A stretch of 64,000 nt of DNA from Giardia intestinalis. Its lineage: Eukaryota. The stretch is taken from the NCBI GenBank assembly GCA_000002435.2, contig CM018791.1; one strand, given 5' to 3'. The position numbers and the translations under genes are program-made. The notes under the pieces are model-generated. The model saw nothing but the letters and a program-made list of their open reading frames with translations. It was not told the origin of the DNA and made no database searches. Positions 1-16,542 of this stretch are shown here, piece after piece; position 1 is the first letter of the stretch, and each line of letters opens with the position of its first letter.

Positions 1-1214
1 ACCCAAATAAAGGAGTGGCTAATTGTGCAACCTGTACTGCAGCACAACAATGCACTAAGTGCCTTCCGGGCTTCTTTAAGACTAGTGCTACAGCTTGTGA
101 TGCTTGTGGTGATAACTGTGCCACATGTTCTGTTGCTGGTGATCCAAATAAGTGTGAAACCTGCAAGACTGGATACTTCTTGGTAACTACTACAGATCCA
201 CAGGGGAAGAAGTGTGTCCCCTGTGACAGTACAACAGATGGTGGCCGCGAAGGCTGCAGTGTCTGCTCTAGCAACGGTGGATTCAAGTGCACTGAATGTA
301 AGCCCAACTATAAGAAGCAGTCCAATGGTGATGCGGGGGATGACTATACATGTGTGAAGACCTGCGAGGACCCCACGGCTTGTGGTGGTACTTCTGGCGC
401 CTGTGATGCCATCGTAATCGACAACACAGGGAAGGAGCTTCACTACTGTTCATACTGTGGAAAGGACAGTGAGTTCCCCATTAATGGACTATGTGTTGGG
501 AATGAAAAGAAAGAGGGGAATAACTGTAACAGTCATACATGTACATCATGTACTACAGGATACTTCTTGTACATGGGAGGCTGCTATAAGTATGATACAG
601 AACCAGGAAGCCTCATGTGCAAGACCGCTGAAGGGGGCAAGTGCACAGTTGCCAATGATGGTAATAAGTACTTCGTAGTACCAGAGGCACAGACCACTGA
701 TCGGTCCGTGTTGGCCTGTGGCAACCCCCTTGGCACACTAGTAGGCACTGATAGTACCTCTAAGGCATACGTGGGGGTACTCAACTGTTCACAGTGTAAA
801 GCACCAGTAGCTCTGACAACAGTTGGTATGGCTGCCGCTGTCTGTACCTCCTGTGACAATAGTAAGAAGCCCAACAGGGATGGCAGTGGGTGCTTCCCAT
901 GTACCGTTAGTGGATGCTCGCACTGCAACAGGGATGACATGTGCGAGGCATGCAGTAGTGGTAAGAAGGTGAGCCCTGGAAGGAAGTCATGCGTGGATAG
1001 CTGCCCCAGCAACTCCACTGACACCGACTCTGTCTGTGTGTGCAACGATGGATACAGCCCTGACAGCAGTGGGACCTCCTGTGCGTCCTCTGGCACCAAC
1101 AGGAGCGGCCTCAGCACAGGGGCCATCGCGGGGATCGCCGTCGCCGTGGTCGTCGTTGTGGGGGGCCTCGTGGGCTTCCTCTGCTGGTGGTTCATATGTA
1201 GAGGGAAGGCGTGA
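1..1214 (+). CDS. VSP (variant-specific surface protein) unit 1, truncated at its 5' end by the window edge. Ends with a TM helix plus the CRGKA tail.
   Basis: Frame 0 is open from nt 3 to a TGA at 1212-1214. Numerous CXXC motifs. GGCYK motif. C-terminal '...GAIAGIAVAVVVVVGGLVGFLCWWFICRGKA*', a hydrophobic TM helix followed by the invariant 5-aa CRGKA tail. The first ~190 nt are identical to an internal segment of unit 3 (3886 onward). Confidence 0.85.
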   Translation, partial: PNKGVANCATCTAAQQCTKCLPGFFKTSATACDACGDNCATCSVAGDPNKCETCKTGYFLVTTTDPQGKKCVPCDSTTDGGREGCSVCSSNGGFKCTECKPNYKKQSNGDAGDDYTCVKTCEDPTACGGTSGACDAIVIDNTGKELHYCSYCGKDSEFPINGLCVGNEKKEGNNCNSHTCTSCTTGYFLYMGGCYKYDTEPGSLMCKTAEGGKCTVANDGNKYFVVPEAQTTDRSVLACGNPLGTLVGTDSTSKAYVGVLNCSQCKAPVALTTVGMAAAVCTSCDNSKKPNRDGSGCFPCTVSGCSHCNRDDMCEACSSGKKVSPGRKSCVDSCPSNSTDTDSVCVCNDGYSPDSSGTSCASSGTNRSGLSTGAIAGIAVAVVVVVGGLVGFLCWWFICRGKA

Positions 1215-1221
1215 CTTAGGT

Positions 1222-1228
1222 AGTGAAT
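1222..1228 (+). promoter_or_regulatory. Putative Giardia polyadenylation signal AGTGAAT (AGTRAAY class), 8 nt after the unit 1 stop.
   Basis: The motif 'cttaggtAGTGAATgct' recurs after every VSP unit. The Giardia poly(A) signal consensus is AGTRAAY, located within about 30 nt of the stop. Confidence 0.6.
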
Positions 1229-1236
1229 GCTGTACA

Positions 1237-1283
1237 GTGATAGTGATAGTGATAGTGCTATGTGGTGTGTGGGGTGATAGTGG
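1237..1283. repeat. Inter-VSP spacer microsatellite (GTGATA)3 followed by a GT-rich 'GTGTGTGGGGTGATAGTGGTGGTGTGGG' segment.
   Basis: Direct reading: gtgata gtgata gtgata gtg at 1237-1257, then gtgatagtgg at 1274-1283. The 6-nt period keeps one frame open ('VIVIVIV') while placing TGA and TAG in the other two. Confidence 0.85.
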
Positions 1284-1302
1284 TGGTGTGGGACTCCTCT
1301 TC

Positions 1303-3168
1303 ATGGGCGGGTGCTACAACAGGACAAGACCTGGCAGTGAGATATGCACAGCAGCCAGTAACGGAGTATGCACTGCTTGTAATACAAAGAACGGCCTGTT
1401 CAAGAACCCAGTTACACCTCAGAAGCCTGGTAGTGAGTGCATCCTCTGCTGGGACACGGTGGGAGATGGCGCGACGAAGGGAGTAGAGAACTGCGCACAG
1501 TGTCAGGCACCACAGAGTGCAGGAGCAGCTACATGCACTGCCTGTCAAGATGGATACTATAAGAACGCTCAGACATGTGAGAAGTGTGATCAGTCCTGTC
1601 TGACCTGTGAGACTACAGAGACCCAGTGTACCTCTTGTAAGGGAAATACGTTCCTGAAGGATAATGCATGCGTGAATAGTGATGGATGCACTGGAAACAC
1701 TTATGCTGACCCTGTGACAATGACCTGCAAGGCGTCTGCAATAACTGATTGCACCACGTGTGAGTACAACCCGGCAACTGGGGGCCCAAAGTGCACGGCA
1801 TGTAATGGAGCTAAGATAGTCAAGGAAGAGGCCGACGGGACGACTACGTGTATAGACGCCGGCACCTGCACTCAAAGCGGAGCAACTGGTGAGAACTTCT
1901 TGAGCGACGGAGATGCCGAATGCATACTATGTAGCAACGATAGCAGCAAGACAGATAATAACAAGGGAAGCCCCGGTTGCGGGACCTGCAGCAAGAACGG
2001 CGCTAAGCCAGAATGCAAGACGTGCCTCGATGGCTACTACGACAGCGGGAACGGTAACCCCGCCGTATGCGTTGCGTGCGCTGGCGATTGCGGAAAGTGC
2101 GGGCCAGGAGGCGCTATAGATACCTGTGAAAAGTGCAAGCCAGGGTTTTTCTTAAAGAATGACGGGGCCAAGAAGTGCGTCCCCTGCGACGATCCGACAG
2201 ATGGAGTGCCCGGCTGTGCAACGTGCACCTTCTCTAACTCGTTTACTTGTGACTCTTGTAAGGTGAACTACCAAAAGAAGGTAGGGGCTGGAGGAGCGGT
2301 CACGTGTGAGAAGACTTGTGAAGACCCTACTGCTTGTGGTGGTACTTCTGGCGCCTGCGATGCAATAGTGATCGACAACACAGGGAAGGAGCTTCACTAC
2401 TGTTCATACTGTGGAAAGGACAGTGAGTTCCCCATTAATGGACTATGTGTTGGGAATGAAAAGAAAGAGGGGAATAACTGTAACAGTCATACATGTACAT
2501 CATGTACTACAGGATACTTCTTGTACATGGGAGGCTGCTATAAGTATGATACAGAACCAGGAAGCCTCATGTGCAAGACCGCTGAAGGGGGCAAGTGCAC
2601 AGTTGCCAATGATGGTAATAAGTACTTCGTAGTACCAGAGGCACAGACCACTGATCGGTCCGTGTTGGCCTGTGGCAACCCCCTTGGCACACTAGTAGGC
2701 ACTGATAGTACCTCTAAGGCATACGTGGGGGTACTCAACTGTTCACAGTGTACAGCCCCAGCAGCTCCATCTGAGGGTGGCATGACTGCCGCCACGTGCA
2801 CAGCGTGTACCAACAACAACAAGCCCAACCTGGCTGGGAGCGGGTGCTTCCCATGTACCGTTAGTGGATGCTCGCACTGCAACAGGGATGACATGTGCGA
2901 GGCATGCAGTAGTGGTAAGAAGGTGAGCCCTGGAAGGAAGTCATGCGTGGATAGCTGCCCCAGCAACTCCACTGACACCGACTCTGTCTGTGTGTGCAAC
3001 GATGGATACAGCCCTGACAGCAGTGGGACCTCCTGTGCGTCCTCTGGCACCAACAGGAGCGGGCTCTCCACGGGGGCCATCGCGGGCATCTCCGTCGCTG
3101 TGGTCGTCGTCGTGGGGGGCCTCGTGGGCTTCTTGTGTTGGTGGTTCGTGTGTAGAGGGAAGGCGTGA
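1303..3168 (+). CDS. VSP unit 2, N-terminally truncated. The first in-frame ATG lies inside the GGCY motif and there is no signal peptide. Possible silent cassette or pseudogene.
   Basis: The VSP-homologous frame runs from about 1285 to a TGA at 3166-3168 and ends in CRGKA. The ORF-track extension back to 1036 merely reads unit 1's 3' end in the +1 frame. The only in-frame ATG after the previous stop is 1303, giving 'MGGCYNRTRPGSEICTAASNGVCTACN', which has no hydrophobic leader. Nearly identical to unit 6. Confidence 0.8.
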   Translation: MGGCYNRTRPGSEICTAASNGVCTACNTKNGLFKNPVTPQKPGSECILCWDTVGDGATKGVENCAQCQAPQSAGAATCTACQDGYYKNAQTCEKCDQSCLTCETTETQCTSCKGNTFLKDNACVNSDGCTGNTYADPVTMTCKASAITDCTTCEYNPATGGPKCTACNGAKIVKEEADGTTTCIDAGTCTQSGATGENFLSDGDAECILCSNDSSKTDNNKGSPGCGTCSKNGAKPECKTCLDGYYDSGNGNPAVCVACAGDCGKCGPGGAIDTCEKCKPGFFLKNDGAKKCVPCDDPTDGVPGCATCTFSNSFTCDSCKVNYQKKVGAGGAVTCEKTCEDPTACGGTSGACDAIVIDNTGKELHYCSYCGKDSEFPINGLCVGNEKKEGNNCNSHTCTSCTTGYFLYMGGCYKYDTEPGSLMCKTAEGGKCTVANDGNKYFVVPEAQTTDRSVLACGNPLGTLVGTDSTSKAYVGVLNCSQCTAPAAPSEGGMTAATCTACTNNNKPNLAGSGCFPCTVSGCSHCNRDDMCEACSSGKKVSPGRKSCVDSCPSNSTDTDSVCVCNDGYSPDSSGTSCASSGTNRSGLSTGAIAGISVAVVVVVGGLVGFLCWWFVCRGKA

Positions 3169-3175
3169 CTTAGGT

Positions 3176-3182
3176 AGTGAAT
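3176..3182 (+). promoter_or_regulatory. Putative polyadenylation signal AGTGAAT after unit 2.
   Basis: Same conserved 3' flank as the other units. Confidence 0.6.
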
Positions 3183-3194
3183 GCTATACAATGT

Positions 3195-3250
3195 GTGATA
3201 GAGGGTGATAATGGGTGATAATGGGTGATAGGGTGATAGTGGAGTGTGAT
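3195..3250. repeat. Inter-VSP spacer ~10-nt repeat GTGATARNGG, five degenerate copies.
   Basis: gtgatagagg / gtgataatgg / gtgataatgg / gtgataggg / tgatagtgg / agtgtgat. Contains TGA/TAG in all three frames. TAG at 3237-3239 closes the body frame nine nt upstream of the GTG 'start'. Confidence 0.85.
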
Positions 3251-5066
3251 ATGCACAGCAGCCAGTAATGGAGTGTGCACTGAGTGTAATACAGATAGTC
3301 AGTACATATTCCAGAACAGGGCTACACCTCAGAAACCTGGTAGTGAGTGCATTCTGTGCTGGGACACGGTGGGAGATGGCGCGACAAAGGGAGTAGAGAA
3401 CTGCGCCACATGTACAGCGCCAGCTAGTAGTCCAGGAGCTGCCACGTGCGCTGAGTGCAAGGCAGGGTACTATAAAGAGAATAACGAATGCAAACCATGC
3501 CAGGAGAACTGTGCCACATGTACCGGGGCCGGTCAGAATCAGTGTTCATCTTGTAAAGCGGGCTTCTATCTGAAGACTGACAAGTCATGCTCAGAAACCT
3601 GCGATAATAACCAGTACTCCAACCCAAGCACCGGCAAGTGCACAGCCTGTAGTGATGCAGAAGCGGGGATAGCTGATTGCGACACATGCACATACGATAC
3701 GACGCTGCAGAAGCCGAAGTGCACAGCCTGTGGTAGCAGTGGGAAAAAGGTGAAGACGGCCATCGACGGCACCACGACATGTGTTACTGTTACATCCGAT
3801 TGCGTAGACGAGAATCACTTCAAGGCAGATGATGACTCAGCTTGTTATCTATGTAGTGATACAACAGGAACAGACCCAAATAAAGGAGTGGCTAATTGTG
3901 CAACCTGTACTGCAGCACAACAATGCACTAAGTGCCTTCCGGGCTTCTTTAAGACTAGTGCTACAGCTTGTGATGCTTGTGGTGATAACTGTGCCACATG
4001 TTCTGTTGCTGGTGATCCAAATAAGTGTGAAACCTGCAAGACTGGATACTTCTTGGTAACTACTACAGATCCACAGGGGAAGAAGTGTGTCCCCTGTGAC
4101 AGTACAACAGATGGTGGCCGCGAAGGCTGCAGTGTCTGCTCTAGCAACGGTGGATTCAAGTGCACTGAATGTAAGCCCAACTATAAGAAGCAGTCCAATG
4201 GTGATGCGGGGGATGACTATACATGTGTGAAGACCTGCGAGGACCCCACGGCTTGTGGTGGTACTTCTGGCGCCTGTGATGCCATCGTAATCGACAACAC
4301 AGGGAAGGAGCTTCACTACTGTTCTTACTGTGGAAAGGACAGTGAGTTCCCTATTGATGGTATATGTAATAGTGATAAAGGAACTAATCAATGTAATCAA
4401 GGTGTATGTACATCATGTACTACGGGGTACTTTATGTACATGAATGGTTGTTACAAGGTGACAGAGGTGCCGGGTAAGTCCATGTGCACAAAGGCAGGTG
4501 ATGGTGTCTGCACAGAGGCGGCAGCTGGGTACTTCATCCCTCCCTCGCCCACCAAGGACAAGCAGTCTGTCCTCTCCTGTGGGAACCCCCTTGGGGTCGA
4601 GCTGGCTGGTCAGAAGGCATACGTAGGAGTAGATGGCTGCTCCCAGTGTAAAGCACCAGTAGCTCTGACAACAGTTGGTATGGCTGCCGCTGTCTGTACC
4701 TCCTGTGACAATAGTAAGAAGCCCAACAGGGATGGCAGTGGGTGCTTCACATGTACCGTTAGTGGATGCTCGCACTGCAACAGGGATGACATGTGCGAGG
4801 CATGCAGTAGTGGTAAGAAGGTGAGCCCTGGAAGGAAGTCATGCGTGGATAGCTGCCCCAGCAACTCCACTGACACCGACTCTGTCTGTGTGTGCAACGA
4901 TGGATACAGCCCTGACAGCAGTGGGACCTCCTGTGCGTCCTCTGGCACCAACAGGAGCGGGCTCTCCACGGGGGCCATCGCGGGCATCTCCGTGGCTGTG
5001 GTCGTTGTCGTGGGGGGCCTCGTGGGCTTCCTCTGCTGGTGGTTCATATGTAGAGGGAAGGCGTAG
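3246..5066 (+). CDS. VSP unit 3. There is no ATG; the ORF-track start is a GTG. No signal peptide; ends in CRGKA. Possible silent cassette or pseudogene.
   Basis: Positions 3246-3248 are GTG. A TAG at 3237-3239, within the GTGATA spacer, closes the frame immediately upstream. None of the five ATGs in the spacer is in the body frame, and each meets a stop within 6-16 codons. The first in-frame ATG is about 1.2 kb downstream ('GYFMYMNGCYKV'). CXXC-rich. Conserved 'CEDPTACGGTSGACDAIVID...HYCSYCG' core. TM helix plus CRGKA, TAG at 5064-5066. Confidence 0.8.
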   Translation: MICTAASNGVCTECNTDSQYIFQNRATPQKPGSECILCWDTVGDGATKGVENCATCTAPASSPGAATCAECKAGYYKENNECKPCQENCATCTGAGQNQCSSCKAGFYLKTDKSCSETCDNNQYSNPSTGKCTACSDAEAGIADCDTCTYDTTLQKPKCTACGSSGKKVKTAIDGTTTCVTVTSDCVDENHFKADDDSACYLCSDTTGTDPNKGVANCATCTAAQQCTKCLPGFFKTSATACDACGDNCATCSVAGDPNKCETCKTGYFLVTTTDPQGKKCVPCDSTTDGGREGCSVCSSNGGFKCTECKPNYKKQSNGDAGDDYTCVKTCEDPTACGGTSGACDAIVIDNTGKELHYCSYCGKDSEFPIDGICNSDKGTNQCNQGVCTSCTTGYFMYMNGCYKVTEVPGKSMCTKAGDGVCTEAAAGYFIPPSPTKDKQSVLSCGNPLGVELAGQKAYVGVDGCSQCKAPVALTTVGMAAAVCTSCDNSKKPNRDGSGCFTCTVSGCSHCNRDDMCEACSSGKKVSPGRKSCVDSCPSNSTDTDSVCVCNDGYSPDSSGTSCASSGTNRSGLSTGAIAGISVAVVVVVGGLVGFLCWWFICRGKA

Positions 5067-5076
5067 GTACTTAGGT

Positions 5077-5083
5077 AGTGAAT
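5077..5083 (+). promoter_or_regulatory. Putative polyadenylation signal AGTGAAT after unit 3.
   Basis: Same conserved 3' flank. Confidence 0.6.
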
Positions 5084-5094
5084 GCTGTACAATG

Positions 5095-5152
5095 TGTGAT
5101 AGAAGGTGATAGTGGGTGATAATGGGTGATAGAGGGTGATAGTGGAGTGTGA
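5095..5152. repeat. Inter-VSP spacer GTGATARNGG-type repeat.
   Basis: gtgatagaaggtgatagtgggtgataatgggtgatagagggtgatagtggagtgtgat. Same architecture as 3195-3250. Confidence 0.85.
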
Positions 5153-6870
5153 TATGCACAAAGGCTGAGGGAGGAGTGTGCACTGCTTGTAAGGCAGATA
5201 ACGGCCTGTTCAAGAACCCGGCTGCAGCACCGAAGCCTGGTAGTGAGTGCATACTGTGCTCTGATATCAAGGGAGCAGATGGATATACGGGGGTGGCTAA
5301 CTGCGCACAGTGTACCAAGTCAGACAGTAGTCCAGGAGCAGCCACGTGTAGTACCTGCAGAGATGGATACTACATGGACTCTCAGGCATGTGTCAAATGT
5401 AATGACGCTTGTCTGACCTGCGATGGAAGTGGTCCGAATCAGTGTACATCGTGCCCAGAGGGGAAGTACCTGAAGACTGACAAGTCATGCGTGAATAATA
5501 ATGGATGCACTGGAAACACTTATGCTGACCCTGTGACAATGACCTGCAAGGATTCTGCAATAACTGATTGCACCACGTGTGAGTACAATGCGACCGTCAG
5601 TAAGCCCCAGTGCACCGCCTGTAATAACAATAAGAAGGTGAAGACGGCCATCGACGGCACCACGACATGTGTTACTGTTACATCCGATTGCGTAGACGAG
5701 AATCACTTCAAGGCAGATGATGACTCAGCTTGTTATCTATGTAGTGATACAACAGGAACAGACCCAAATAAAGGAGTGGCTAATTGTGCAACCTGTACTG
5801 CAGCACAACAATGCACTAAGTGCCTTCCGGGCTTCTTTAAGACTAGTGCTACAGCTTGTGATGCTTGTGGTGATAACTGTGCCACATGTTCTGTTGCTGG
5901 TGATCCAAATAAGTGTGAAACCTGCAAGACTGGATACTTCTTAGTAACTACTACAGATCAACAGGGGAAGAAGTGCGTCCCATGCGATAGCGTAGACGAT
6001 AAGGGTCGCGAAGGCTGCAGTGTCTGCTCTAACAACGGTGCTTTCAAGTGCACTGACTGTAAGCCTAACTATCGCAAGGAGGGCAGTACTGGCTCTGTCA
6101 CATGCACCAAGATCTGTGAAGATGATACTGCCTGTGGAGGAACTTCTGGTGCCTGCGATGCAATAGTGATTGATGATAAGGGTGTAGAGCATCATTATTG
6201 CTCATACTGTGGAGAAGCTAATACGTATCCTATAGATGGGAAGTGTAATAGTGCTAAAGCAAATAATCAATGTGATCAAGGTGTATGTACACAATGCACT
6301 AACAACTACTTCTTGTATATGGGAGGTTGTTACAAGGTTGATACAGTACCTGGACAACATATGTGCAAGACAGCAGCCAACGGTGTCTGTACTGCTGTTA
6401 ATGCCAACAATAGGTACTTCATAGTCCCTGGGGCAACCAATCAGAATCAGTCTGTATTGGCATGTAGCAACTCCCTTGGCACACTAGTAGGCACTGGTGA
6501 TACCTCTAAGGCATATGTGGGGGTAGATGGCTGTTCGGCATGTACGGCCCCAGCAGCTCTGTCTGATGGTGGTATGACTGCCGCTGTGTGTACCTCCTGT
6601 GACAGTGGTAAGGTGCCCAACAAGGACGGCAGTGGGTGTGTGACATGCTCTGTGGGTGATTGTAAGAGCTGTGTGATGGATAATATATGTGAAGAGTGCA
6701 ACAGTGGTTTCAGCATAGACAGCAGTGGGGCCTCCTGTGTGTCTATGAGTACCAACAGGAGCGGGCTCTCCACGGGGGCCATCGCGGGGATCTCCGTCGC
6801 TGTGGTCGTTGTCGTGGGGGGCCTCGTGGGCTTCCTCTGCTGGTGGTTCATATGTAGAGGGAAGGCATGA
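5149..6870 (+). CDS. VSP unit 4, the most divergent copy. There is no ATG; the ORF-track start is a GTG. No signal peptide; ends in CRGKA.
   Basis: Positions 5149-5151 are GTG. The frame is open to a TGA at 6868-6870. Its C-terminal cysteine module is distinct ('CVTCSVGDCKSCVMDNICEECNSGFSIDSSGASCVSMSTNRSGLSTG...') but the TM helix and CRGKA tail are the same. The 5' half is shared with unit 7. Confidence 0.8.
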   Translation: MICTKAEGGVCTACKADNGLFKNPAAAPKPGSECILCSDIKGADGYTGVANCAQCTKSDSSPGAATCSTCRDGYYMDSQACVKCNDACLTCDGSGPNQCTSCPEGKYLKTDKSCVNNNGCTGNTYADPVTMTCKDSAITDCTTCEYNATVSKPQCTACNNNKKVKTAIDGTTTCVTVTSDCVDENHFKADDDSACYLCSDTTGTDPNKGVANCATCTAAQQCTKCLPGFFKTSATACDACGDNCATCSVAGDPNKCETCKTGYFLVTTTDQQGKKCVPCDSVDDKGREGCSVCSNNGAFKCTDCKPNYRKEGSTGSVTCTKICEDDTACGGTSGACDAIVIDDKGVEHHYCSYCGEANTYPIDGKCNSAKANNQCDQGVCTQCTNNYFLYMGGCYKVDTVPGQHMCKTAANGVCTAVNANNRYFIVPGATNQNQSVLACSNSLGTLVGTGDTSKAYVGVDGCSACTAPAALSDGGMTAAVCTSCDSGKVPNKDGSGCVTCSVGDCKSCVMDNICEECNSGFSIDSSGASCVSMSTNRSGLSTGAIAGISVAVVVVVGGLVGFLCWWFICRGKA

Positions 6871-6877
6871 CTCAGGT

Positions 6878-6884
6878 AGTGAAT
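6878..6884 (+). promoter_or_regulatory. Putative polyadenylation signal AGTGAAT after unit 4.
   Basis: Same conserved 3' flank ('ctcaggtagtgaat'). Confidence 0.6.
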
Positions 6885-6890
6885 GCTATA

Positions 6891-6950
6891 CAATGTGTGA
6901 TAATGGGTAATAGAGGGTGATAGTGTGATAGTGATAGTGGAGTGTGATAT
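6891..6950. repeat. Inter-VSP spacer GTGATA-type repeat (degenerate 10-nt and 6-7-nt copies).
   Basis: gtgtgataatgggtaatagagggtgatagtgtgatagtgatagtggagtgtgat. Confidence 0.8.
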
Positions 6951-8791
6951 GCACAAAGGCCAGTAGTGGACTGTGCACTGCTTGTAAGACAGATAACAAG
7001 TACATATTCCAGAACAGGGCAGACAAGGTGACTCCTGGTGGGGAGTGCATCTTGTGCTCTGATATCAAGGGAGCGAATGAGAACAAAGGAGTGGCCAACT
7101 GCCTCAAGTGCACGGCGCCAGCTAGTAGTCCAGGACCTGCCACGTGTACTGAGTGCAAGGCTGGGTACGTTAAGGATAGCGTTTCTAATACGTGTAAGAA
7201 GTGCGGAGAGGGCTGCTCAGAGAGTAATCAAAATCAATGCTCGGCATGCGTTGAGGGGAAGTACCTGAAGGGTGATAACACTTGTGTAGAGGCTAGTGGA
7301 TGCGGTGCTGGTAACTATGCAGACCCGACAACAGGCCAATGTAAGGCATGTGATCCCGACATAGCTGGGTGCACCGCATGTGAATATAATGATGCCACGG
7401 GGAAGCCAAGGTGCACCAACTGCGGGACCAATAAGACCCCCAGGACGACCCTTGATGGGACCTCGACCTGTGTGACAAAAGACTACGCTGGATGTAAAGG
7501 CGCTGACGGGGCCCTATTTATGAAGGAGGACAAAACATGTGTTTTATGCAGTACCGTTTCAGCTGGAGCCGATCCAAATGACCAGGGCATTGCCGGGTGT
7601 AAGAAGTGTACCAAGGACTCGGCGACACCGCCAACCTGCTCGGAGTGCCTCGACGGATATTACAATAGCGCAACTGGTGGTAGTGGTACGGCTACATGTG
7701 AAGCTTGTGGTGATAATTGTGCCACCTGTGCTAAGGATACAAAAGACCAATGCATGACCTGTAAGCCCGGGTTCTTCATGAAAGGTAGTGGTCCTGGCAC
7801 ATGCGTCCCCTGTGATGACCAAACAGATGGAGTGCCTGGCTGTGCAACGTGCACCTTCTCTAGCTCGTTGACCTGCAACTCCTGTAAGCCCAACTACAAG
7901 CAGAGTGGTACCGGTCCTTTTACATGCACCAAGACTTGTGAAGACCCCACTGCCTGCGGGGGCACTTCTGGTGCCTGCGATGCCATGATAATTGATGATC
8001 AGGGCACCACAAAGCACTACTGTTCCTACTGTGGAGAGACCAATAAGATACCAATTGATGGGAAGTGTGTTGATAGTGGTAGTATAAATGGTAATACTTG
8101 TGCTAAAGGTGTATGTACACAGTGTGCTCAAGGATACTTCTTATACATGGGAGGCTGTTATAAGGTAGCAAGTCCACCCGGTAACCTCATGTGCACTGAA
8201 GCAACAACAGCTGGTGTCTGTGATACACCCAATGCCAATAATAAGTACTTCGTAGTCCCAGAAGCAAAGCCTACTCAACAGTCTGTGTTGGCTTGTGGTA
8301 ACCCCCTGGGCACACTAGTAGGCACTGATAGTACCGCTAAGGCATATGTGGGGGTGGATGGCTGCTCCCAGTGTACAGCCCCAACAGCTCCATCTGAGGG
8401 TGGCATGACTGCCGCCACGTGCACAGCGTGTACCAACAACAACAAGCCCAACCTGGCTGGGAGCGGGTGCTTCCCATGTACCGTTAGTGGATGCTCGCAC
8501 TGCAACAGGGATGACATGTGCGAGGCATGCAGTAGTGGTAAGAAGGTGAGCCCTGGAAGGAAGTCATGCGTGGATAGCTGCCCCAGCAACTCCACTGATG
8601 ATAACTCTGTCTGTGTGTGCAACGATGGATACAGCCCTGACAGCAGTGGGACCTCCTGTGTGTCCTCTGGCGCCAACAGGAGCGGCCTCAGCACAGGGGC
8701 CATCGCGGGGATCGCCGTCGCCGTGGTCGTCGTTGTGGGGGGCCTCGTGGGCTTCCTCTGCTGGTGGTTCATATGTAGAGGGAAGGCGTGA
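6944..8791 (+). CDS. VSP unit 5. There is no ATG; the ORF-track start is a GTG. No signal peptide; ends in CRGKA.
   Basis: Positions 6944-6946 are GTG. TGA at 8789-8791. CXXC-rich with a GGCYK motif. The C-terminal 100 aa are nearly identical to the other units. The 3' end plus the following spacer are identical to the unit 1 to unit 2 junction. Confidence 0.8.
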   Translation: MICTKASSGLCTACKTDNKYIFQNRADKVTPGGECILCSDIKGANENKGVANCLKCTAPASSPGPATCTECKAGYVKDSVSNTCKKCGEGCSESNQNQCSACVEGKYLKGDNTCVEASGCGAGNYADPTTGQCKACDPDIAGCTACEYNDATGKPRCTNCGTNKTPRTTLDGTSTCVTKDYAGCKGADGALFMKEDKTCVLCSTVSAGADPNDQGIAGCKKCTKDSATPPTCSECLDGYYNSATGGSGTATCEACGDNCATCAKDTKDQCMTCKPGFFMKGSGPGTCVPCDDQTDGVPGCATCTFSSSLTCNSCKPNYKQSGTGPFTCTKTCEDPTACGGTSGACDAMIIDDQGTTKHYCSYCGETNKIPIDGKCVDSGSINGNTCAKGVCTQCAQGYFLYMGGCYKVASPPGNLMCTEATTAGVCDTPNANNKYFVVPEAKPTQQSVLACGNPLGTLVGTDSTAKAYVGVDGCSQCTAPTAPSEGGMTAATCTACTNNNKPNLAGSGCFPCTVSGCSHCNRDDMCEACSSGKKVSPGRKSCVDSCPSNSTDDNSVCVCNDGYSPDSSGTSCVSSGANRSGLSTGAIAGIAVAVVVVVGGLVGFLCWWFICRGKA

Positions 8792-8798
8792 CTTAGGT

Positions 8799-8805
8799 AG
8801 TGAAT
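8799..8805 (+). promoter_or_regulatory. Putative polyadenylation signal AGTGAAT after unit 5.
   Basis: Same conserved 3' flank. Confidence 0.6.
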
Positions 8806-8813
8806 GCTGTACA

Positions 8814-8860
8814 GTGATAGTGATAGTGATAGTGCTATGTGGTGTGTGGGGTGATAGTGG
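8814..8860. repeat. Inter-VSP spacer (GTGATA)3 plus a GT-rich segment, identical to 1237-1283.
   Basis: The whole 88-nt junction 8792-8879 is identical to 1215-1302. Confidence 0.85.
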
Positions 8861-8879
8861 TGGTGTGGGACTCCTCTTC

Positions 8880-10748
8880 ATGGGCGGGTGCTACAAGGCA
8901 GGACAAGATCCTGGCAGTGAGATATGCACAGCAGCCAGTAACGGAGTATGCACTGCTTGTAATACAAAGAACGGCCTGTTCAAGAACCCAGTTACACCTC
9001 AGAAGCCTGGTAGTGAGTGCATCCTCTGCTGGGACACGGTGGGAGATGGCGCGACGAAGGGAGTAGAGAACTGCGCACAGTGTCAGGCACCACAGAGTGC
9101 AGGAGCAGCTACATGCACTGCCTGTCAAGATGGATACTATAAGAACGCTCAGACATGTGAGAAGTGTGATCAGTCCTGTCTGACCTGTGAGACTACAGAG
9201 ACCCAGTGTACCTCTTGTAAGGGAAATACGTTCCTGAAGGATAATGCATGCGTGAATAGTGATGGATGCACTGGAAACACTTATGCTGACCCTGTGACAA
9301 TGACCTGCAAGGCGTCTGCAATAACTGATTGCACCACGTGTGAGTACAACCCGGCAACTGGGGGCCCAAAGTGCACGGCATGTAATGGAGCTAAGATAGT
9401 CAAGGAAGAGGCCGACGGGACGACTACGTGTATAGACGCCGGCACCTGCACTCAAAGCGGAGCAACTGGTGAGAACTTCTTGAGCGACGGAGATGCCGAA
9501 TGCATACTATGTAGCAACGATAGCAGCAAGACAGATAATAACAAGGGAAGCCCCGGTTGCGGGACCTGCAGCAAGAACGGCGCTAAGCCAGAATGCAAGA
9601 CGTGCCTCGATGGCTACTACGACAGCGGGAACGGTAACCCCGCCGTATGCGTTGCGTGCGCTGGCGATTGCGGAAAGTGCGGGCCAGGAGGCGCTATAGA
9701 TACCTGTGAAAAGTGCAAGCCAGGGTTTTTCTTAAAGAATGACGGGGCCAAGAAGTGCGTCCCCTGCGACGATCCGACAGATGGAGTGCCCGGCTGTGCA
9801 ACGTGCACCTTCTCTAACTCGTTTACTTGTGACTCTTGTAAGGTGAACTACCAAAAGAAGGTAGGGGCTGGAGGAGCGGTCACGTGTGAGAAGACTTGTG
9901 AAGACCCTACTGCTTGTGGTGGTACTTCTGGCGCCTGCGATGCAATAGTGATCGACAACACAGGGAAGGAGCTTCACTACTGTTCATACTGTGGAAAGGA
10001 CAGTGAGTTCCCCATTAATGGACTATGTGTTGGGAATGAAAAGAAAGAGGGGAATAACTGTAACAGTCATACATGTACATCATGTACTACAGGATACTTC
10101 TTGTACATGGGAGGCTGCTATAAGTATGATACAGAACCAGGAAGCCTCATGTGCAAGACCGCTGAAGGGGGCAAGTGCACAGTTGCCAATGATGGTAATA
10201 AGTACTTCGTAGTACCAGAGGCACAGACCACTGATCGGTCCGTGTTGGCCTGTGGCAACCCCCTTGGCACACTAGTAGGCACTGATAGTACCTCTAAGGC
10301 ATACGTGGGGGTACTCAACTGTTCACAGTGTACAGCCCCAGCAGCTCCATCTGAGGGTGGCATGACTGCCGCCACGTGCACAGCGTGTACCAACAACAAC
10401 AAGCCCAACCTGGCTGGGAGCGGGTGCTTCCCATGTACCGTTAGTGGATGCTCGCACTGCAACAGGGATGACATGTGCGAGGCATGCAGTAGTGGTAAGA
10501 AGGTGAGCCCTGGAAGGAAGTCATGCGTGGATAGCTGCCCCAGCAACTCCACTGACACCGACTCTGTCTGTGTGTGCAACGATGGATACAGCCCTGACAG
10601 CAGTGGGACCTCCTGTGCGTCCTCTGGCACCAACAGGAGCGGGCTCTCCACGGGGGCCATCGCGGGGATCTCCGTCGCCGTGGTCGTTGTCGTGGGGGGC
10701 CTCGTGGGCTTCCTCTGCTGGTGGTTCATATGTAGAGGGAAGGCGTGA
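8880..10748 (+). CDS. VSP unit 6, a near-duplicate of unit 2. The first in-frame ATG lies inside the GGCY motif and there is no signal peptide.
   Basis: ATG at 8880-8882 giving 'MGGCYKAGQDPGSEICTAAS...'. The remainder is identical to unit 2 at the protein level apart from one 3-nt indel with adjacent substitutions near the start. It lies 7577-7580 nt downstream of unit 2. TGA at 10746-10748. The ORF-track start at 8598 is an out-of-frame read-through of unit 5's 3' end. Confidence 0.8.
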   Translation: MGGCYKAGQDPGSEICTAASNGVCTACNTKNGLFKNPVTPQKPGSECILCWDTVGDGATKGVENCAQCQAPQSAGAATCTACQDGYYKNAQTCEKCDQSCLTCETTETQCTSCKGNTFLKDNACVNSDGCTGNTYADPVTMTCKASAITDCTTCEYNPATGGPKCTACNGAKIVKEEADGTTTCIDAGTCTQSGATGENFLSDGDAECILCSNDSSKTDNNKGSPGCGTCSKNGAKPECKTCLDGYYDSGNGNPAVCVACAGDCGKCGPGGAIDTCEKCKPGFFLKNDGAKKCVPCDDPTDGVPGCATCTFSNSFTCDSCKVNYQKKVGAGGAVTCEKTCEDPTACGGTSGACDAIVIDNTGKELHYCSYCGKDSEFPINGLCVGNEKKEGNNCNSHTCTSCTTGYFLYMGGCYKYDTEPGSLMCKTAEGGKCTVANDGNKYFVVPEAQTTDRSVLACGNPLGTLVGTDSTSKAYVGVLNCSQCTAPAAPSEGGMTAATCTACTNNNKPNLAGSGCFPCTVSGCSHCNRDDMCEACSSGKKVSPGRKSCVDSCPSNSTDTDSVCVCNDGYSPDSSGTSCASSGTNRSGLSTGAIAGISVAVVVVVGGLVGFLCWWFICRGKA

Positions 10749-10755
10749 CTTAGGT

Positions 10756-10762
10756 AGTGAAT
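10756..10762 (+). promoter_or_regulatory. Putative polyadenylation signal AGTGAAT after unit 6.
   Basis: Same conserved 3' flank. Confidence 0.6.
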
Positions 10763-10774
10763 GCTGTACAATGT

Positions 10775-10830
10775 GTGATAGAAGGTGATAGTGGGTGATA
10801 ATGGGTGATAGAGGGTGATAGTGGAGTGTG
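10775..10830. repeat. Inter-VSP spacer GTGATARNGG-type repeat.
   Basis: gtgatagaaggtgatagtgggtgataatgggtgatagagggtgatagtggagtgtgat, identical to the 5095-5152 spacer. Confidence 0.85.
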
Positions 10831-12633
10831 ATATGCACAAAGGCTGAGGGAGGAGTGTGCACTGCTTGTAAGGCAGATAACGGCCTGTTCAAGAACCCAG
10901 TTACACCTCAGAAGCCTGGTGGGGAGTGCATACTGTGCTCTGATATCAAGGGAGCAGATGGATATACGGGGGTGGCTAACTGCGCACAGTGTACCAAGTC
11001 AGACAGTAGTCCAGGAGCAGCCACGTGTAGTACCTGCAGAGATGGATACTACATGGACTCTCAGGCATGTGTCAAATGTAATGACGCTTGTCTGACCTGC
11101 GATGGAAGTGGTCCGAATCAGTGTACATCGTGCCCAGAGGGGAAGTACCTGAAGACTGACAAGTCATGCGTGAATAATAATGGATGCACTGGAAACACTT
11201 ATGCTGACCCTGTGACAATGACCTGCAAGGATTCTGCAATAACTGATTGCACCACGTGTGAGTACAATGCGACCGTCAGTAAGCCCCAGTGCACCGCCTG
11301 TAATAACAATAAGAAGGTGAAGACGGCCATCGACGGCACCACGACATGTGTTACTGTTACATCCGATTGCGTAGACGAGAATCACTTCAAGGCAGATGAT
11401 GACTCAGCTTGTTATCTATGTAGTGATACAACAGGAACAGACCCAAATAAAGGAGTGGCTAATTGTGCAACCTGTACTGCAGCACAACAATGCACTAAGT
11501 GCCTTCCGGGCTTCTTTAAGACTAGTGCTACAGCTTGTGATGCTTGTGGTGATAACTGTGCCACATGTTCTGTTGCTGGTGATCCAAATAAGTGTGAAAC
11601 CTGCAAGACTGGATACTTCTTGGTAACTACTACAGATCCACAGGGGAAGAAGTGTGTCCCCTGTGACAGTACAACAGATGGTGGCCGCGAAGGCTGCAGT
11701 GTCTGCTCTAGCAACGGTGGATTCAAGTGCACTGAATGTAAGCCCAACTATAAGAAGCAGTCCAATGGTGATGCGGGGGATGACTATACATGTGTGAAGA
11801 CCTGCGAGGACCCCACGGCTTGTGGTGGTACTTCTGGCGCCTGTGATGCCATCGTAATCGACAACACAGGGAAGGAGCTTCACTACTGTTCTTACTGTGG
11901 AAAGGACAGTGAGTTCCCTATTGATGGTATATGTAATAGTGATAAAGGAACTAATCAATGTAATCAAGGTGTATGTACATCATGTACTACGGGGTACTTT
12001 ATGTACATGAATGGTTGTTACAAGGTGACAGAGGTGCCGGGTAAGTCCATGTGCACAAAGGCAGGTGATGGTGTCTGCACAGAGGCGGCAGCTGGGTACT
12101 TCATCCCTCCCTCGCCCACCAAGGACAAGCAGTCTGTCCTCTCCTGTGGGAACCCCCTTGGGGTCGAGCTGGCTGGCCAGAAGGCATACGTAGGAGTAGA
12201 TGGCTGTTCACAGTGTACAGCACCAAAACAGCTAGAGGCTCCTGGCATGACTCCTGCTATATGTACCTCTTGTGACAGTAGTAAGAAGCCCAACAGGGAT
12301 GGCAGTGGGTGCTTCCCATGTACCGTTAGTGGATGCTCGCACTGTGATATGGACAACATGTGCGAGGCATGCAGTAGTGGTAAGAAGGTGAGCCCTGGAA
12401 GGAAGTCATGCGTGGATAGCTGCCCCAGCAACTCCACTGATGATAACTCTGTCTGTGTGTGCAACGATGGATATAGCCCTGACAGCAGTGGGACCTCCTG
12501 TGTGTCCTCTGGCGCCAACAGGAGCGGCCTCAGCACAGGGGCCATCGCGGGGATCTCCGTCGCTGTGGTCGTCGTCGTGGGGGGCCTCGTCGGCTTCCTC
12601 TGCTGGTGGTTCGTGTGCAGGGGGAAGGCGTAG
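10828..12633 (+). CDS. VSP unit 7, the terminal unit. It is a chimera of the unit 4 5' half and the unit 3 3' half. There is no ATG; the ORF-track start is a GTG. Ends in CRGKA.
   Basis: Positions 10828-10830 are GTG. The N-terminal ~270 aa match unit 4 ('MICTKAEGGVCTACKADNGLFKNP...'). From 'DPQGKKCVPCDSTTDGGREGCSVCSSNGGFKCTECKPNYKKQSNGDAGDDY' onward it matches unit 3. TAG at 12631-12633. Its 3' flank differs from the others: a duplicated 'acttag', AGTAAAC instead of AGTGAAT, and no GTGATA repeat. Confidence 0.8.
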   Translation: MICTKAEGGVCTACKADNGLFKNPVTPQKPGGECILCSDIKGADGYTGVANCAQCTKSDSSPGAATCSTCRDGYYMDSQACVKCNDACLTCDGSGPNQCTSCPEGKYLKTDKSCVNNNGCTGNTYADPVTMTCKDSAITDCTTCEYNATVSKPQCTACNNNKKVKTAIDGTTTCVTVTSDCVDENHFKADDDSACYLCSDTTGTDPNKGVANCATCTAAQQCTKCLPGFFKTSATACDACGDNCATCSVAGDPNKCETCKTGYFLVTTTDPQGKKCVPCDSTTDGGREGCSVCSSNGGFKCTECKPNYKKQSNGDAGDDYTCVKTCEDPTACGGTSGACDAIVIDNTGKELHYCSYCGKDSEFPIDGICNSDKGTNQCNQGVCTSCTTGYFMYMNGCYKVTEVPGKSMCTKAGDGVCTEAAAGYFIPPSPTKDKQSVLSCGNPLGVELAGQKAYVGVDGCSQCTAPKQLEAPGMTPAICTSCDSSKKPNRDGSGCFPCTVSGCSHCDMDNMCEACSSGKKVSPGRKSCVDSCPSNSTDDNSVCVCNDGYSPDSSGTSCVSSGANRSGLSTGAIAGISVAVVVVVGGLVGFLCWWFVCRGKA

Positions 12634-12653
12634 ACTTAGCTGTGTACTTAGGT

Positions 12654-12660
12654 AGTAAAC
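12654..12660 (+). promoter_or_regulatory. Putative polyadenylation signal AGTAAAC (the canonical Giardia form) after the terminal unit 7.
   Basis: 'tacttaggtAGTAAACgc'. The flank differs from the internal junctions and marks the array boundary. Confidence 0.6.
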
Positions 12661-15600
12661 GCATCGCCTATTGCACCTGTCCACTCCATGGCCGTTGCGC
12701 CGTCATTCCATAAAACCGTTGGACCACCTGTCTCCGAGCATCCGTCGAATCCTGCGGTAGGACCGCGCCTCCATGTTTTGCCGTGCCCGCTTCTGTATGG
12801 CAATGAGCACCCCCTACTATTGTACAACTATTCCACCCAGAGGCAGGCGACATACATGGATCTTGACTCTAATATGCGCCTCTGTGCACCACCTCTCGCA
12901 CCTTAGCAGCCCGACTACAACATCGTGGGGTCTGGGCACTCCCAAGCGGCGTGTGTCGGGCACCTGATCGACTATGCACAAGGCCCGTGGCAGTCAAGGC
13001 GTGCAGCGCTGGACTATCATCTTAAGTACCCGGCGCATCCAAAGAGACGATAGCTGGAAGAACGGCTAGCCACACTTTTCAACCATTGGTGTCTTGCAGC
13101 ATCTCCAACATAAGCCTCTAGGCAGCGGTTCGCAGTGATACATGAGCTACAGGGGAGCTTGCCGCCAAACATGATCTGTGTGCATAGACCGGTTACCGTT
13201 ACTTGATGAAGTAGACGCTTCTCAGTTCGGGCACGTCTGGTCCGCGTGATCTCCTTGCCCGGGGCTCTTTTCTATAGCTATTACCGTGTGCGGGGTCCAA
13301 GAGGGCAGCCATCGATTTTCAAATGCGCGCTTGGCTCTGCCTTTCCCGGGATGCGCAGTGCTAAGCGTTGACGAACCACGCTCTGGCCACAGGATTTCCT
13401 TCGTGGGAAGGAAGCTCCTCCACAGTCCTGTAATCACATCCTAGAAGTGCCTGACTCCAGCTCCAATGTCATTATGGGTGACTCAGCCATGGAATGAATA
13501 CCACAGGACATCATGGTTAATGACATATGCTGCGGATCTTCCGACGGTTCTGCTGAGCCCTGTGCCGCTATCCGCAAACATCTACCCCAGGGATATAGAA
13601 ATCAGAGTCTGCAGAGGGATCCCTGGGGCTGTGAGCAGGGTGGTCTTCAGGGACGACCGGCGGCATCCACGGACATGGGCGCTCCCAACTGTGGTCGGCT
13701 CGAAGGCAGTGCTTGTTGGCTCATGCAAGGGCGATGCGGCTCTCCGGTAGGTCCCAGTGTCCGGCTGCATAATCTCTGTTAGATTCCTGGACGGGCTGAG
13801 ATTTTAGCCACGGCATCTGCAGGCAAGCCCGCACTGTGGCCTCCTCCAGCAGGAGCCAATCTGTCTCATCTCCGATGCCACCCTTCGCCGGGCCTTCGGT
13901 GGGACACCCATACACGTCAGCCATTGCACAATATACAGTATGAATCTCTAACAGTCTCTGACACATCGCACAGCTCCCTCAGCCGCCAGTTCGGCCATCC
14001 TACGGCGGAAACTCCTTAACTCGTTCCGAATTAAGAAGAGAAGCGCCGTCAGGCCCCGCCAGTACTGCGATCGGAGACGTCGTGGGAACACGGGGTGCCG
14101 AACCTTCTGCCGTTGACTGTCAGCCCCCGCACACGGGGATTCCGGCTGCATCCCACTACGCACTCTCGTGGAGCGACAGCGCAGACACTAAAGGGTGGCT
14201 TGGGGTCGTTCACTGGGCGTCGGCCACCTCATCGAGACCCCCGCAAATTGCTCCCGAGGAGTCTGCCGCCGACATGCGTTATAGGTGGGCACTTAGTGCG
14301 CTCTGCGAGGACAGGCCGGCCAGTATGAAGGACCTCACAGACAAAGAGCCTGAGGGCCTATAGCGGACTTCTACAGGCCAGTTCAACAACAGAGACGTCG
14401 GATGGCAGGCGCTAACAAGGATTGCTCGGCTCGACCCGCTAACGTAGATCCTCCAGATTGCATGCGCAAGACTGTTGCACTTACAACGGAGACCGACCTG
14501 GGTCGAGGCTCACATAAGGACAGCAACGTCGTGGATCATGGAAGCAACACGTGCATGGCGTTTATCCGTGCCTCCTGTCCATCCAGTGCTTGGGCCAGAC
14601 GCTGACCCTGGCAGTCAAGCAGAGAATGCACAGCAGCCGGCCCCAGACTGGGCGACCCAGAACTGCTTGTAAAATGGTCAACATGTCGCTGGGCCAGTTG
14701 TGGAGTGCGAAACTAAGAACGAGGCTCCTCCATGCTGCTGGTCAGCTCGGTCTCCAGGGAGCAGCTCCAAAAGAGACTACACGACGAACGAGGGCCAGCA
14801 AGGGGCCAGAAGGAGCAGTCGTTCGACAAATGAGGAAGAGCCAGAGATGCAACAACATGCAGGCGGCAGAGAAGAAGCAGGCACACCTAGCTCCGGTCAC
14901 TTTTCCACTTATTGGGTGCTGAGGGATGCACTCAGTAAGGACAGCCTGTACCAGCAACGTCGCAGCTTCAGCCTGAGCACTCCCTCCCGGGCTTCTTGTA
15001 CACTGCTGGAGAGAGCGTCCACTTGGGCCTGCTAGGAGCAGACCCGCTCGATGAGGCCCTGGGACCTTCTCGTACTCTTCGCTGCCATCGGTGTATCCAG
15101 GTAGCGTACCGGTACTTCGTGGCACCAGTGGGGAATGCTCTTCCTATCTACGCCTAGTTCCTGGAATCTCCTGCCAGTGAAGGACGCTTTGAACATAGGC
15201 TCACACGGAGCTTAGGGCGTCTGTGTGTCCGCCCAGCAGGTAGCACAGCACCAGGCGGGCAGTCGTCATGCCGCGCTGGATGCCAGCTTCTTTAATCAAG
15301 GAGCCATTCGACGCGAAGCTCTTCCGGATACACGGCTCGCTGGACGAGCTGGCTCAGCAGACCCGCCTGCAGGGGACCTCGTTGGGCATGGCTGGCGGTC
15401 GTCGGCTCCTGAGCAGGGGAGCTCATCCATTTCTCGGCGGTGGGCAGTGCATCTCCTCCGGCGCACCCACTCGTGCCAGGAGGCGTGTACAAGACGATCA
15501 GAGATGTAGTTGTGCCTGATGGCCACATCCAGGATGCAGACATGGAGGTAATAGTATACCTGTCAAGACAGCACACGACTTCCCTACAGCTCCTTGGCGT

Positions 15601-16542
15601 ATCGGCGCACGCAGGCAGAGGGCCAGCCAGGGTGAATGTCGTGGCCGGCCAGCTGCGCATCAGCCCTAGCTCACGGCCCAGAGAGCATTCAGTCGCCTGT
15701 TACCGGACGGGCCTGTCTGGTAGATCGTTGGCCCAGACCGCGGTGTTCGAGTCGTCTGCGCACACGGGAGAGACCTGCCTTCTCCTGCTGTGTGTGGTCT
15801 CTTCAACGATGTGTAAGCTGCGTCTGGTGGGCCCTGCGCTGTGCCGTGGTTGAGCATGCTGCACGCTCTAGGCATGACGGTCTCGCCACTGACCAGGACT
15901 TCAACTATTAGCTGCTCCTACCGACCACTCTTCGATGCCCCTCGACGACCACCAGACAAGCCGAGCTCTCCAGTCTTCAGCCCTTACTGGGGTATGTATC
16001 AGCGCACCCAGGCACGCCCCCGTAGCCCGCAGGGGGGAAGCATGGCACGCATGCGAAGGAAGTGGGCGGCCCGAGAAGATCCTGGCCCGTCTGGAGCGAG
16101 AGGGTGCCGGGCCCAGGAACGACCCCGGGCGGGAGGGCGAGGACGAGGCACCCCGGCGTGCGCGGGGGCAGAAGCGCAGAGACCGCGCCCGGAGCCACAA
16201 AGACCGGCCCCCCAACGGGCGGCACCAGCGGAGGCGCGGCGCAACCAAGAACGCAGGGGGGCGAAGAGTTTGGTCAGAGTGTACAATCGTGTATGTGAGG
16301 AAGCTACAAACGGAGATATCAAAGGTAGAAAGAGTGGCCCAGTTATATACCCTCATTGGGCCCCAATTTATCAGAACACTAGCTCTATAACTGGCATCAG
16401 CTTGTTACTCCATGCATGTACGCAGTACTGCAAGAGTGTTACTAAGAATTGGCAAACCTGTCCATGATACAGTGGAAATTGTACCTTCTAAAACGGCTCA
16501 GAAAGGTGATCATTCCAAGACTTCTTACCATGTGTTGCCTAC
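12661..16542. other. GC-rich (~57-60%) non-repetitive region of about 3.9 kb with no convincing ORF. Candidates are an ORF desert, a degenerate element, or the edge of the array.
   Basis: Only short overlapping ORFs (208 aa or less) on all six strands, with a length distribution like random sequence. No CXXC, ankyrin or RT motifs were noticed. The composition is unlike the flanking Giardia coding DNA. Confidence 0.5.

Follow-up and report, generated by a model that had tools for sequence, protein, structure and literature searches.

We have analyzed a stretch of 64,000 nucleotides (hereafter the window) from a 1.97-Mb chromosome contig of Giardia intestinalis WB (assembly GCA_000002435.2, contig CM018791.1). 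Positions 1-12633 are occupied by a head-to-tail array of seven units that belong to the VSP (variant-specific surface protein) family, all on the + strand. The subject of this analysis is the short GTGATA-based tandem repeats at the joints between these units.

An array of VSP pseudogenes

All seven units have a C-terminal transmembrane domain and then close with CRGKA and a stop codon, at positions 1214, 3168, 5066, 6870, 8791, 10748 and 12633, giving six internal joints. Unit 1 is clipped by the start of the window. The units have the cysteine-rich CXXC ectodomain of the Giardia VSPs, and the family profile Pfam PF03302 matches both unit 3 (E = 3.9e-43) and the open reading frame (ORF) of unit 2 (E = 6.4e-34). 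A search for homologues of unit 3 returned 328, and those that are named are Giardia VSPs, other cysteine-rich proteins and a few VSP-like proteins under other names. The best of them is only 64% identical, and therefore these particular units are not present in the protein databases.

A functional VSP gene has an initiator (Inr, PyAATGTT) at its start codon and encodes an N-terminal signal peptide. Reading the frames unit by unit, we found no in-frame ATG near the start, no VSP Inr and no signal peptide in any of units 2-7; the joints carry only CAATGTG. Units 2-7 are therefore VSP pseudogenes (psiVSPs) rather than functional VSPs. When the VSP frame is traced back from the stop codon in units 3, 4, 5 and 7, it opens 2-4 codons before ...V-I-C-T, and the first in-frame Met lies 77-398 codons in. 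For units 2 and 6 the opening is at ..GLLFMGGCY; here the frame continues open through the spacer and into the preceding unit, which is read in a different frame, and the first in-frame ATG sits in this spurious upstream extension. Complete VSPs start with MLLIA..., with GGCY near residue 95 and a second EICT near residue 106. By these landmarks some 90-107 N-terminal residues are missing from the array cassettes, the signal peptide among them.

Linear VSP arrays in Giardia run head to tail, with intergenic regions that average 60 bp and reach a maximum of 241 bp (Adam et al., 2010; PMC2996952). The PyAATGTT Inr is missing from their downstream members, and the same authors proposed that they are non-expressed recombination cassettes. 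The joints studied here are 76-85 nt in length, the units share a strand, and PyAATGTT is absent from every downstream unit. The locus belongs to the published linear psiVSP arrays (Adam et al., 2010, PMC2996952; Xu et al., 2020, PMC7000408).

Structure, variation and distribution of the joints

GTGATA-based repeats are present at all six joints. They have a 6-nt period before units 2 and 6 (type A) and a 10-nt period before units 3, 4 and 7 (type B), while the tract before unit 5 is a hybrid. Tandem Repeats Finder detects period-6 arrays of 3.7 copies at 1236-1257 and 8813-8834, and period-10 arrays of 4.6-4.7 copies at 3195-3238, 5096-5142 and 10775-10821. Before unit 5 it returns a weaker 10-nt array (6892-6922) followed by 8-nt and 6-nt arrays (6917-6939). 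An earlier reading of this DNA from its letters alone (the sequence-only reading) had proposed two classes of spacer, and both the repeat detection and the counts of stop codons below bear this out. Its description of four to five 10-mers holds before units 3, 4 and 7, with one 8-nt step in the joint before unit 3. It does not hold before unit 5, where the spacings run 10/10/8/6 nt and there are only two strict matches to GTGATARNGG.

These short units are repeated head to tail well above chance, as in a micro- or minisatellite. Allowing up to one mismatch, the 10-nt pattern GTGATARNGGGTGATA has 13 matches where 0.01 are expected, every one of them in the joints. The 6-nt pattern GTGATAGTGATA has nine, against 0.30 expected; two of the nine are the two-copy GTAATAGTGATA, picked up by the relaxed pattern inside cassettes 3 and 7 (at 4366 and 11933). 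The features of the array are collected in Table 1.

Table 1. Units, leaders and repeat tracts of the psiVSP array, in window coordinates
Feature	Position	Strand	Remarks
psiVSP unit 1, clipped by window start	1-1214	+	Ends CRGKA then TGA; mosaic of unit-3-like and unit-2-like blocks
Joint 1>2 leader CTTAGGTAGTGAATGCTGTACA	1215-1236	+	Extended VSP polyadenylation signal
Type-A tract: (GTGATA)3, GT-rich stretch, GTGATAGTGGTGGTGTG	1237-1290	+	Downstream frame open
psiVSP cassette 2	1291-3168	+	Starts within ..GLLFMGGCY; PF03302; 99.8% identical to cassette 6
Joint 2>3 leader	3169-3194	+	Polyadenylation signal and Inr-like CAATGT
Type-B tract: five GTGATA, 10/10/10/8-nt spacing	3195-3245	+	Sole joint with canonical G3x4 quadruplex motif
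psiVSP cassette 3	3246-5066	+	Begins GTG ATA TGC (V-I-C-T); PF03302
Joint 3>4 leader	5067-5095	+	3-nt insertion after TAG stop
Type-B tract: five GTGATA, 10-nt spacing	5096-5148	+
psiVSP cassette 4	5149-6870	+	5' 900 nt match cassette 7
Joint 4>5 leader	6871-6896	+
Hybrid tract: GTGATA / GTAATA / GTGATA x3, 10/10/8/6-nt spacing	6897-6943	+
psiVSP cassette 5	6944-8791	+
Joint 5>6 leader	8792-8813	+
Type-A tract	8814-8867	+	Duplicate of 1237-1290
psiVSP cassette 6	8868-10748	+
Joint 6>7 leader	10749-10774	+
Type-B tract	10775-10827	+	Identical to 5096-5148
psiVSP cassette 7, terminal unit	10828-12633	+
3' flank of terminal unit	12634-12665	+	AGTAAA-type polyadenylation signal, then no GTGATA repeats

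The joints are built to a common plan. The stop codon is followed by the extended VSP polyadenylation signal CTTAGGTAGTGAATGCTRTACA, by CAATGT in the 10-nt type, by the GTGATA tandem repeat and then by the cassette. An alignment of ten joints shows an invariant leader, a variable repeat tract and the cassette after it, the leader running from the stop through CT(T/C)AGGTAGTGAATGCT(G/A)TACA. In every unit the signal CTTAGGTAGTGAATGC lies 0-3 nt past the stop, and it corresponds to the extended VSP polyadenylation signal, for which the consensus is ACUUAGRUAGURAAYRY (Rodriguez-Walker et al., bioRxiv 10.1101/2022.03.07.483299). Cleavage in Giardia typically occurs 13-15 nt past the polyadenylation hexamer (bioRxiv 10.1101/2022.03.07.483299). 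In the joints the AGTGAA hexamer lies 7-12 nt past the stop, so that cleavage is predicted at the boundary between leader and repeat, and the repeats are thus expected to lie outside the mRNA. Inspection of the joints by eye revealed no splice signals, i.e., no GTATGT and no Giardia-type 3' splice motif.

All array-internal joints have AGTGAA and then TGCTRTACA. The terminal unit and the singleton VSPs that we compared mostly have AGTAAA (GGTAGTAAACG), with GGTAGTGAATG in two singletons (contigs L008 and L009). A second, partial copy of the signal (ACTTAGCTGTGTACTTAGG) is present in the terminal flank as well.

In the 10-nt type the leader runs on as CAATGT-GTGATAG. CAATGTG agrees at six of seven positions with the near-VSP-exclusive Inr CAATGTT (the background rate of YAATGT is 4.5e-4 per nt), and CAATGT-GTGATAG resembles the canonical gene start CAATGTTGTTGATAGC (M-L-L-I-A) in a contig of isolate P15 (L020). 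At the other end of the tract, the extra GTGATA at 3246, 5149, 6944 and 10828 constitutes the first two codons of the downstream cassette (GTG ATA TGC). In two metagenome contigs from the ENA (L010 and L011) the tract reads CAATGT GTGATAATGG GTGATAGAAG GTGATAGAGG GTGATA followed directly by TGCACA, and so the last repeat copy doubles as the start of the cassette. The type-A cassettes have the homologous internal sequence ..CAGTGAGATATGCACA...

We then consider the reading frames. The four 10-nt-type spacers contain 2-6 stops in each of the three frames, in agreement with the proposal in the sequence-only reading that a 10-nt period rotates stops through all frames. The TGA and TAG of GTGATAG, described there as overlapping, are in fact adjacent codons in one frame. 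In the two 6-nt-type spacers there are no stops in the downstream VSP frame, which is therefore open as the ORFs 1036-3168 and 8598-10748; the spurious upstream extensions anticipated at 1036 and 8598 are indeed found. It had also been stated that the 6-nt variant leaves one frame open. This is correct for the whole spacer, but a pure (GTGATA)n tract leaves two (VI and DS).

The spacers have no evident secondary structure, with minimum free energies near 0 and non-negative z-scores. A scan of Rfam gave nothing in the array, the sole match being a 5S rRNA gene downstream. A G-quadruplex conserved across the joints (four runs of G3+ with loops of 1-7 nt) was considered and rejected, as only joint 2>3 qualifies.

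Repeats and cassettes have been duplicated together. Over 1.8 kb, units 2 and 6 share 99.8% identity, and this identity extends through the upstream joint into the preceding unit (1027-3132 compared with 8604-10712, 99.3-99.8% identity by BLAST). The segments 5069-5219 and 10748-10898 are 100% identical, spacer included, and in units 4 and 7 the spacer plus the first 900 nt are 99-100% identical. In view of these shared identities the six joints represent about four independent lineages, each spacer having been inherited with its adjoining 5' end. Within the window the spacer type does follow the downstream unit, as the sequence-only reading had noticed, because the repeats were copied together with the adjoining cassette. 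This is linkage by descent and not a rule, since in isolate DH a 10-nt-repeat joint precedes a cassette of the unit-2/6 type (LLFMGGCY).

The array is clearly a mosaic. Unit 1 alternates between unit-3-like and unit-2-like blocks, switching partner near 378-478 and 792-798, and unit 7 corresponds to unit 4 in its 5' part and unit 3 in its middle part, with the switch within 11314-11660. The list of BLAST blocks is cleaner evidence of mosaicism than a nearest-neighbor map from the multiple sequence alignment, the latter being noisy from gap columns. Such a patchwork points to unequal crossover or gene conversion on repeated occasions, the breakpoints falling within cassettes. Units 1-2-3 and 5-6-7 also resemble a segmental duplication, with an offset of ~7.57 kb.

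For the distribution of the repeats we compared ~220 kb of Giardia DNA, in which the arrays sampled are of assemblage A type only; other joints of strain WB were visible only through old protein annotations. Exact GTGATA clusters were found exclusively at array-internal joints, namely the six of the window, a single one from isolate DH (L007) and another four from the two ENA contigs. They are absent from at least 12 3' flanks of singleton or terminal VSPs (this array, DH, P15, GS-type and metagenome contigs), and from the regions upstream of complete VSP genes in the small sample provided by L007, L008, L009, L019, L020 and L021. The material from assemblages B and E comprised singletons, the P15 pseudogene and one B pair, too few to judge whether the repeats are specific to assemblage A. 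A scan of JGI metagenomes with the joint leader AGGTAGTGAATGCTRTACA gave five matches, all unrelated chance matches and none from Giardia.

The length of the tracts is variable. There are 5+1 copies in the window compared with 3+1 in L010 and L011, and the DH joint has two 10-nt copies followed by two 6-nt copies. Taking together the window, DH, the ENA contigs and the old WB annotations, the tracts have 1-5 copies in mixed registers, so that copy number varies between sites and isolates in what is a paralogous comparison. In the old WB annotations that begin at the ATG in the signal (GTGAATGCTG), the type-A spacer is translated as MLYSDSDSAMWCGG (P0004 and P0006) or MLYSDSDSDSAMWCGG (P0019), giving spacer-derived N-termini with DS x2 in the former and DS x3 in the latter. 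An extra GT in the type-A joints of the window moves the open frame from DS to VI. The repeats are thus neither confined to this locus, nor invariant in length, nor unassociated with VSP genes. They recur at further loci and in further isolates, their length differs, and in every case a VSP pseudogene adjoins them.

The practical use of these findings lies mainly in annotation. The joints account for a class of spurious VSP ORFs, which either extend upstream, as at 1036 and 8598, or start at the ATG of the signal (MLYSDSDS). The database 'VSP' proteins P0004, P0006, P0010 and P0019 have N-termini that are translated joint (MLYSDSDS..., ..GDSDSVG..) and begin at this ATG. As far as can be judged from their sequences, these N-termini look like annotation artefacts of array-internal pseudogenes. 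The combination of CTTAGGTAGTGAATGCTRTACA plus GTGATA repeats provides a simple marker of array-internal psiVSP cassettes in assemblage A genomes, and the repeats could serve as length-variable typing markers.

A different kind of pseudogene is seen in G. intestinalis P15 (L020, ACVC01000194), where the annotation of a singleton VSP at 9722-10000 begins at an internal Met (MGGCY...). Its Inr, start and signal peptide are intact 280 nt upstream, and one in-frame TAG (..EICT-stop-CRAGG..) interrupts the gene. With an intact 5' end and a single TAG, this is a recently inactivated VSP and not an array-type truncation.

Proposed origin and possible roles of the repeats

We consider that the GTGATA tracts are probably the non-coding joints of a known psiVSP array, neutral and prone to slippage, which accompany the cassettes on duplication or conversion. 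Slippage would generate the 1-5 copies per tract, the 6/8/10-nt registers and the gain or loss of GT, and the repeats would travel with the adjoining cassette on duplication of a unit or mutual conversion. No selected function would then be required. The joints themselves may have arisen in two steps. A relic VSP start (CAATGTTGTTGATAG) would have been fused to internal ..GTGAGATATGC.. by deletion at a GATA microhomology, and the fused joint would then have been expanded by slippage. The canonical VSP start CAATGTTGTTGATAG is present in L020.

Three points weigh against this view. The single head-to-tail pair available from assemblage B (n = 1) has a 110-nt joint that contains no GTGATA repeats. 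The leader and GTGATA motif persist in WB, in DH and in unrelated metagenome contigs, as well as next to cassettes with diverged adjoining coding sequence, which could reflect constraint rather than repeated conversion. Lastly, the putative origin from a relic start draws on short similarities that were spotted after the fact.

What functions might the repeats have instead? The sequence-only reading took the stops to insulate the cassettes from read-through; the repeats would then be stop-codon traps under selection, acting against translation that runs on from the upstream unit. Each frame is closed in all four spacers of the 10-nt type, and the 13 stops in 80 nt exceed the number in composition-matched shuffles (P about 0.0006). 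However, the excess arises because the motif itself is repeated, and in neutral joints stops would follow simply from its content of TGATAG and TGATAA; moreover, when a spacer is shuffled by mononucleotides, composition alone closes three frames in 76% of the shuffles. In the upstream frame the VSP stop is backed up by an in-frame TAG and TGA within the polyadenylation signal, all ahead of the repeats, which begin at the predicted cleavage point, and the downstream cassettes have neither start codon, Inr nor signal peptide. A stop trap should close three frames at every joint and be present in the transcript, yet at type-A joints the downstream frame is open, in this array as well as in others of WB. 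The stop codons are most likely a by-product of the motif and not a selected insulating device, and selection for insulation appears highly improbable. A cis-acting DNA or RNA signal, i.e., a downstream GU-rich 3'-end element, an array for silencing by WGATAR-binding factors or a G-quadruplex, is also very unlikely. The repeats are G/T-rich and begin at the predicted cleavage point, TGATAG and TGATAA fit the WGATAR consensus on inspection, and the predicted minimum-energy fold of joint 2>3, with its canonical G3x4 motif, includes a quadruplex. Against this, complete expressed-type VSPs and terminal units share the polyadenylation signal without the repeats, and the G3x4 motif occurs in one of six joints, with just 2-3 GGG runs in the DH and ENA joints. 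We know of no GATA-type factor in Giardia, no search for one having been made.

Alternatively the repeats might be recombination boundary elements at the 5' edge of the silent cassettes, promoting or delimiting gene conversion and unequal crossover, with the VSP 3' end as the other boundary. GT-rich repeats promote recombination in other organisms. The repeats are at every array-internal joint examined and nowhere else, WB, DH and the metagenome contigs all retain them, the mosaicism of the array is strong, and the tract of 100% identity (5069-5219 and 10748-10898) begins at the joint and takes in the spacer. Arrays have moreover been proposed as recombination reservoirs (PMC2996952). Nevertheless, no GTGATA cluster lies upstream of any complete VSP examined, and therefore the repeats provide no donor-acceptor homology of the kind associated with the 70-bp repeats of trypanosomes (see below). 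The clear mosaic breakpoints in units 1 and 7 lie within the cassettes, and the adjoining 200-300 nt of near-identical VSP 3' coding sequence offers a much larger homologous substrate than a 50-nt repeat. Over the array, most clear ends of exchange tracts are inside cassettes and one identity tract starts from a joint, similar 3' ends hiding the left limits. In addition, VSP switching in G. intestinalis is called epigenetic in the abstract of Adam et al. (2010; PMC2996952). A role as recombination boundary therefore seems unlikely, and the more specific proposal, that the tracts are functional 5' boundaries, fragile or recombination-prone, that start or delimit segmental conversion and array expansion, is likewise unlikely. 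Were they boundary elements, they would be a Giardia counterpart of the trypanosome 70-bp repeats, providing a DNA-level route to new VSPs beside epigenetic switching. Were they to promote recombination, this would bear upon the diversification of Giardia surface antigens, but nothing found here points in that direction.

Surroundings of the array and comparison with known systems

Downstream of the array (12640-16300) lies a region of ~3.6 kb with a G+C content of 56-60%, compared with 45-50% in the rest of the window, and with few ORFs. It contains a full-length 5S rRNA gene at 13987-14106 (+; Rfam RF00001, 85 bits). At the border between this region and the gene-dense region are two ORFs without a Pfam match, at 16543-17421 (-; 292 aa) and 15841-16467 (+; 208 aa). 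Two housekeeping ORFs of the window match exactly WB GL50803_0010232 and the TCP-1 chaperonin subunit zeta, on a contig of 1,973,847 bp. An ORF of 1024 aa at 24760-27834 (+) matches polysaccharide lyase family 8 in each of its three domains (Pfam Lyase_8_N, Lyase_8 and Lyase_8_C). This family seems unexpected in a Giardia genome, and the gene could have been acquired laterally.

The array is itself one of the published linear VSP arrays of G. intestinalis WB. It shares with them the head-to-tail units with CRGKA and the extended polyadenylation signal, the short joints containing stops, the mosaic and recently duplicated units, and downstream members without Inr, ATG or signal peptide. None of the searched texts of Adam et al. 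(2010; PMC2996952), of Xu et al. (2020; PMC7000408) and of the preprint 10.1101/2022.03.07.483299 describes which sequences the joints contain, and the string 'GTGATA' has zero occurrences in the first of these. A literature search with Giardia and GTGATA gave no title on VSP arrays or joints among the matches listed, which were judged by title. The three-part anatomy of the joints and their variation in copy number are thus a small undescribed detail of a known system, and not a new system.

Giardia muris likewise has tandem VSP pseudogenes without signal peptides in telomere-adjacent psiVSP arrays (Xu et al., 2020; PMC7641422). Those arrays are transcriptionally silent, with phylogenetic evidence of exchange with intact VSPs (PMC7641422). 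They differ in species, in a cytoplasmic tail of GCRGK and in being almost exclusively adjacent to telomeres.

There is also a likeness to the 70-bp repeats of Trypanosoma brucei, which are short, imperfect repeats bordering silent arrayed antigen cassettes on their 5' side. The 70-bp repeats are found upstream of the expressed variant surface glycoprotein gene as well, and they provide the upstream homology and boundary for gene conversion. By contrast, GTGATA repeats are absent upstream of the complete VSPs examined, and the breakpoints lie inside the cassettes. In their tandem 6-10-nt units, imperfect copies, mixed registers, variable copy number and lack of secondary structure, the repeats correspond to ordinary micro- or minisatellites. 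They differ from these in being tied to the joints of psiVSPs, and in lying in register with the first codons of the next cassette.

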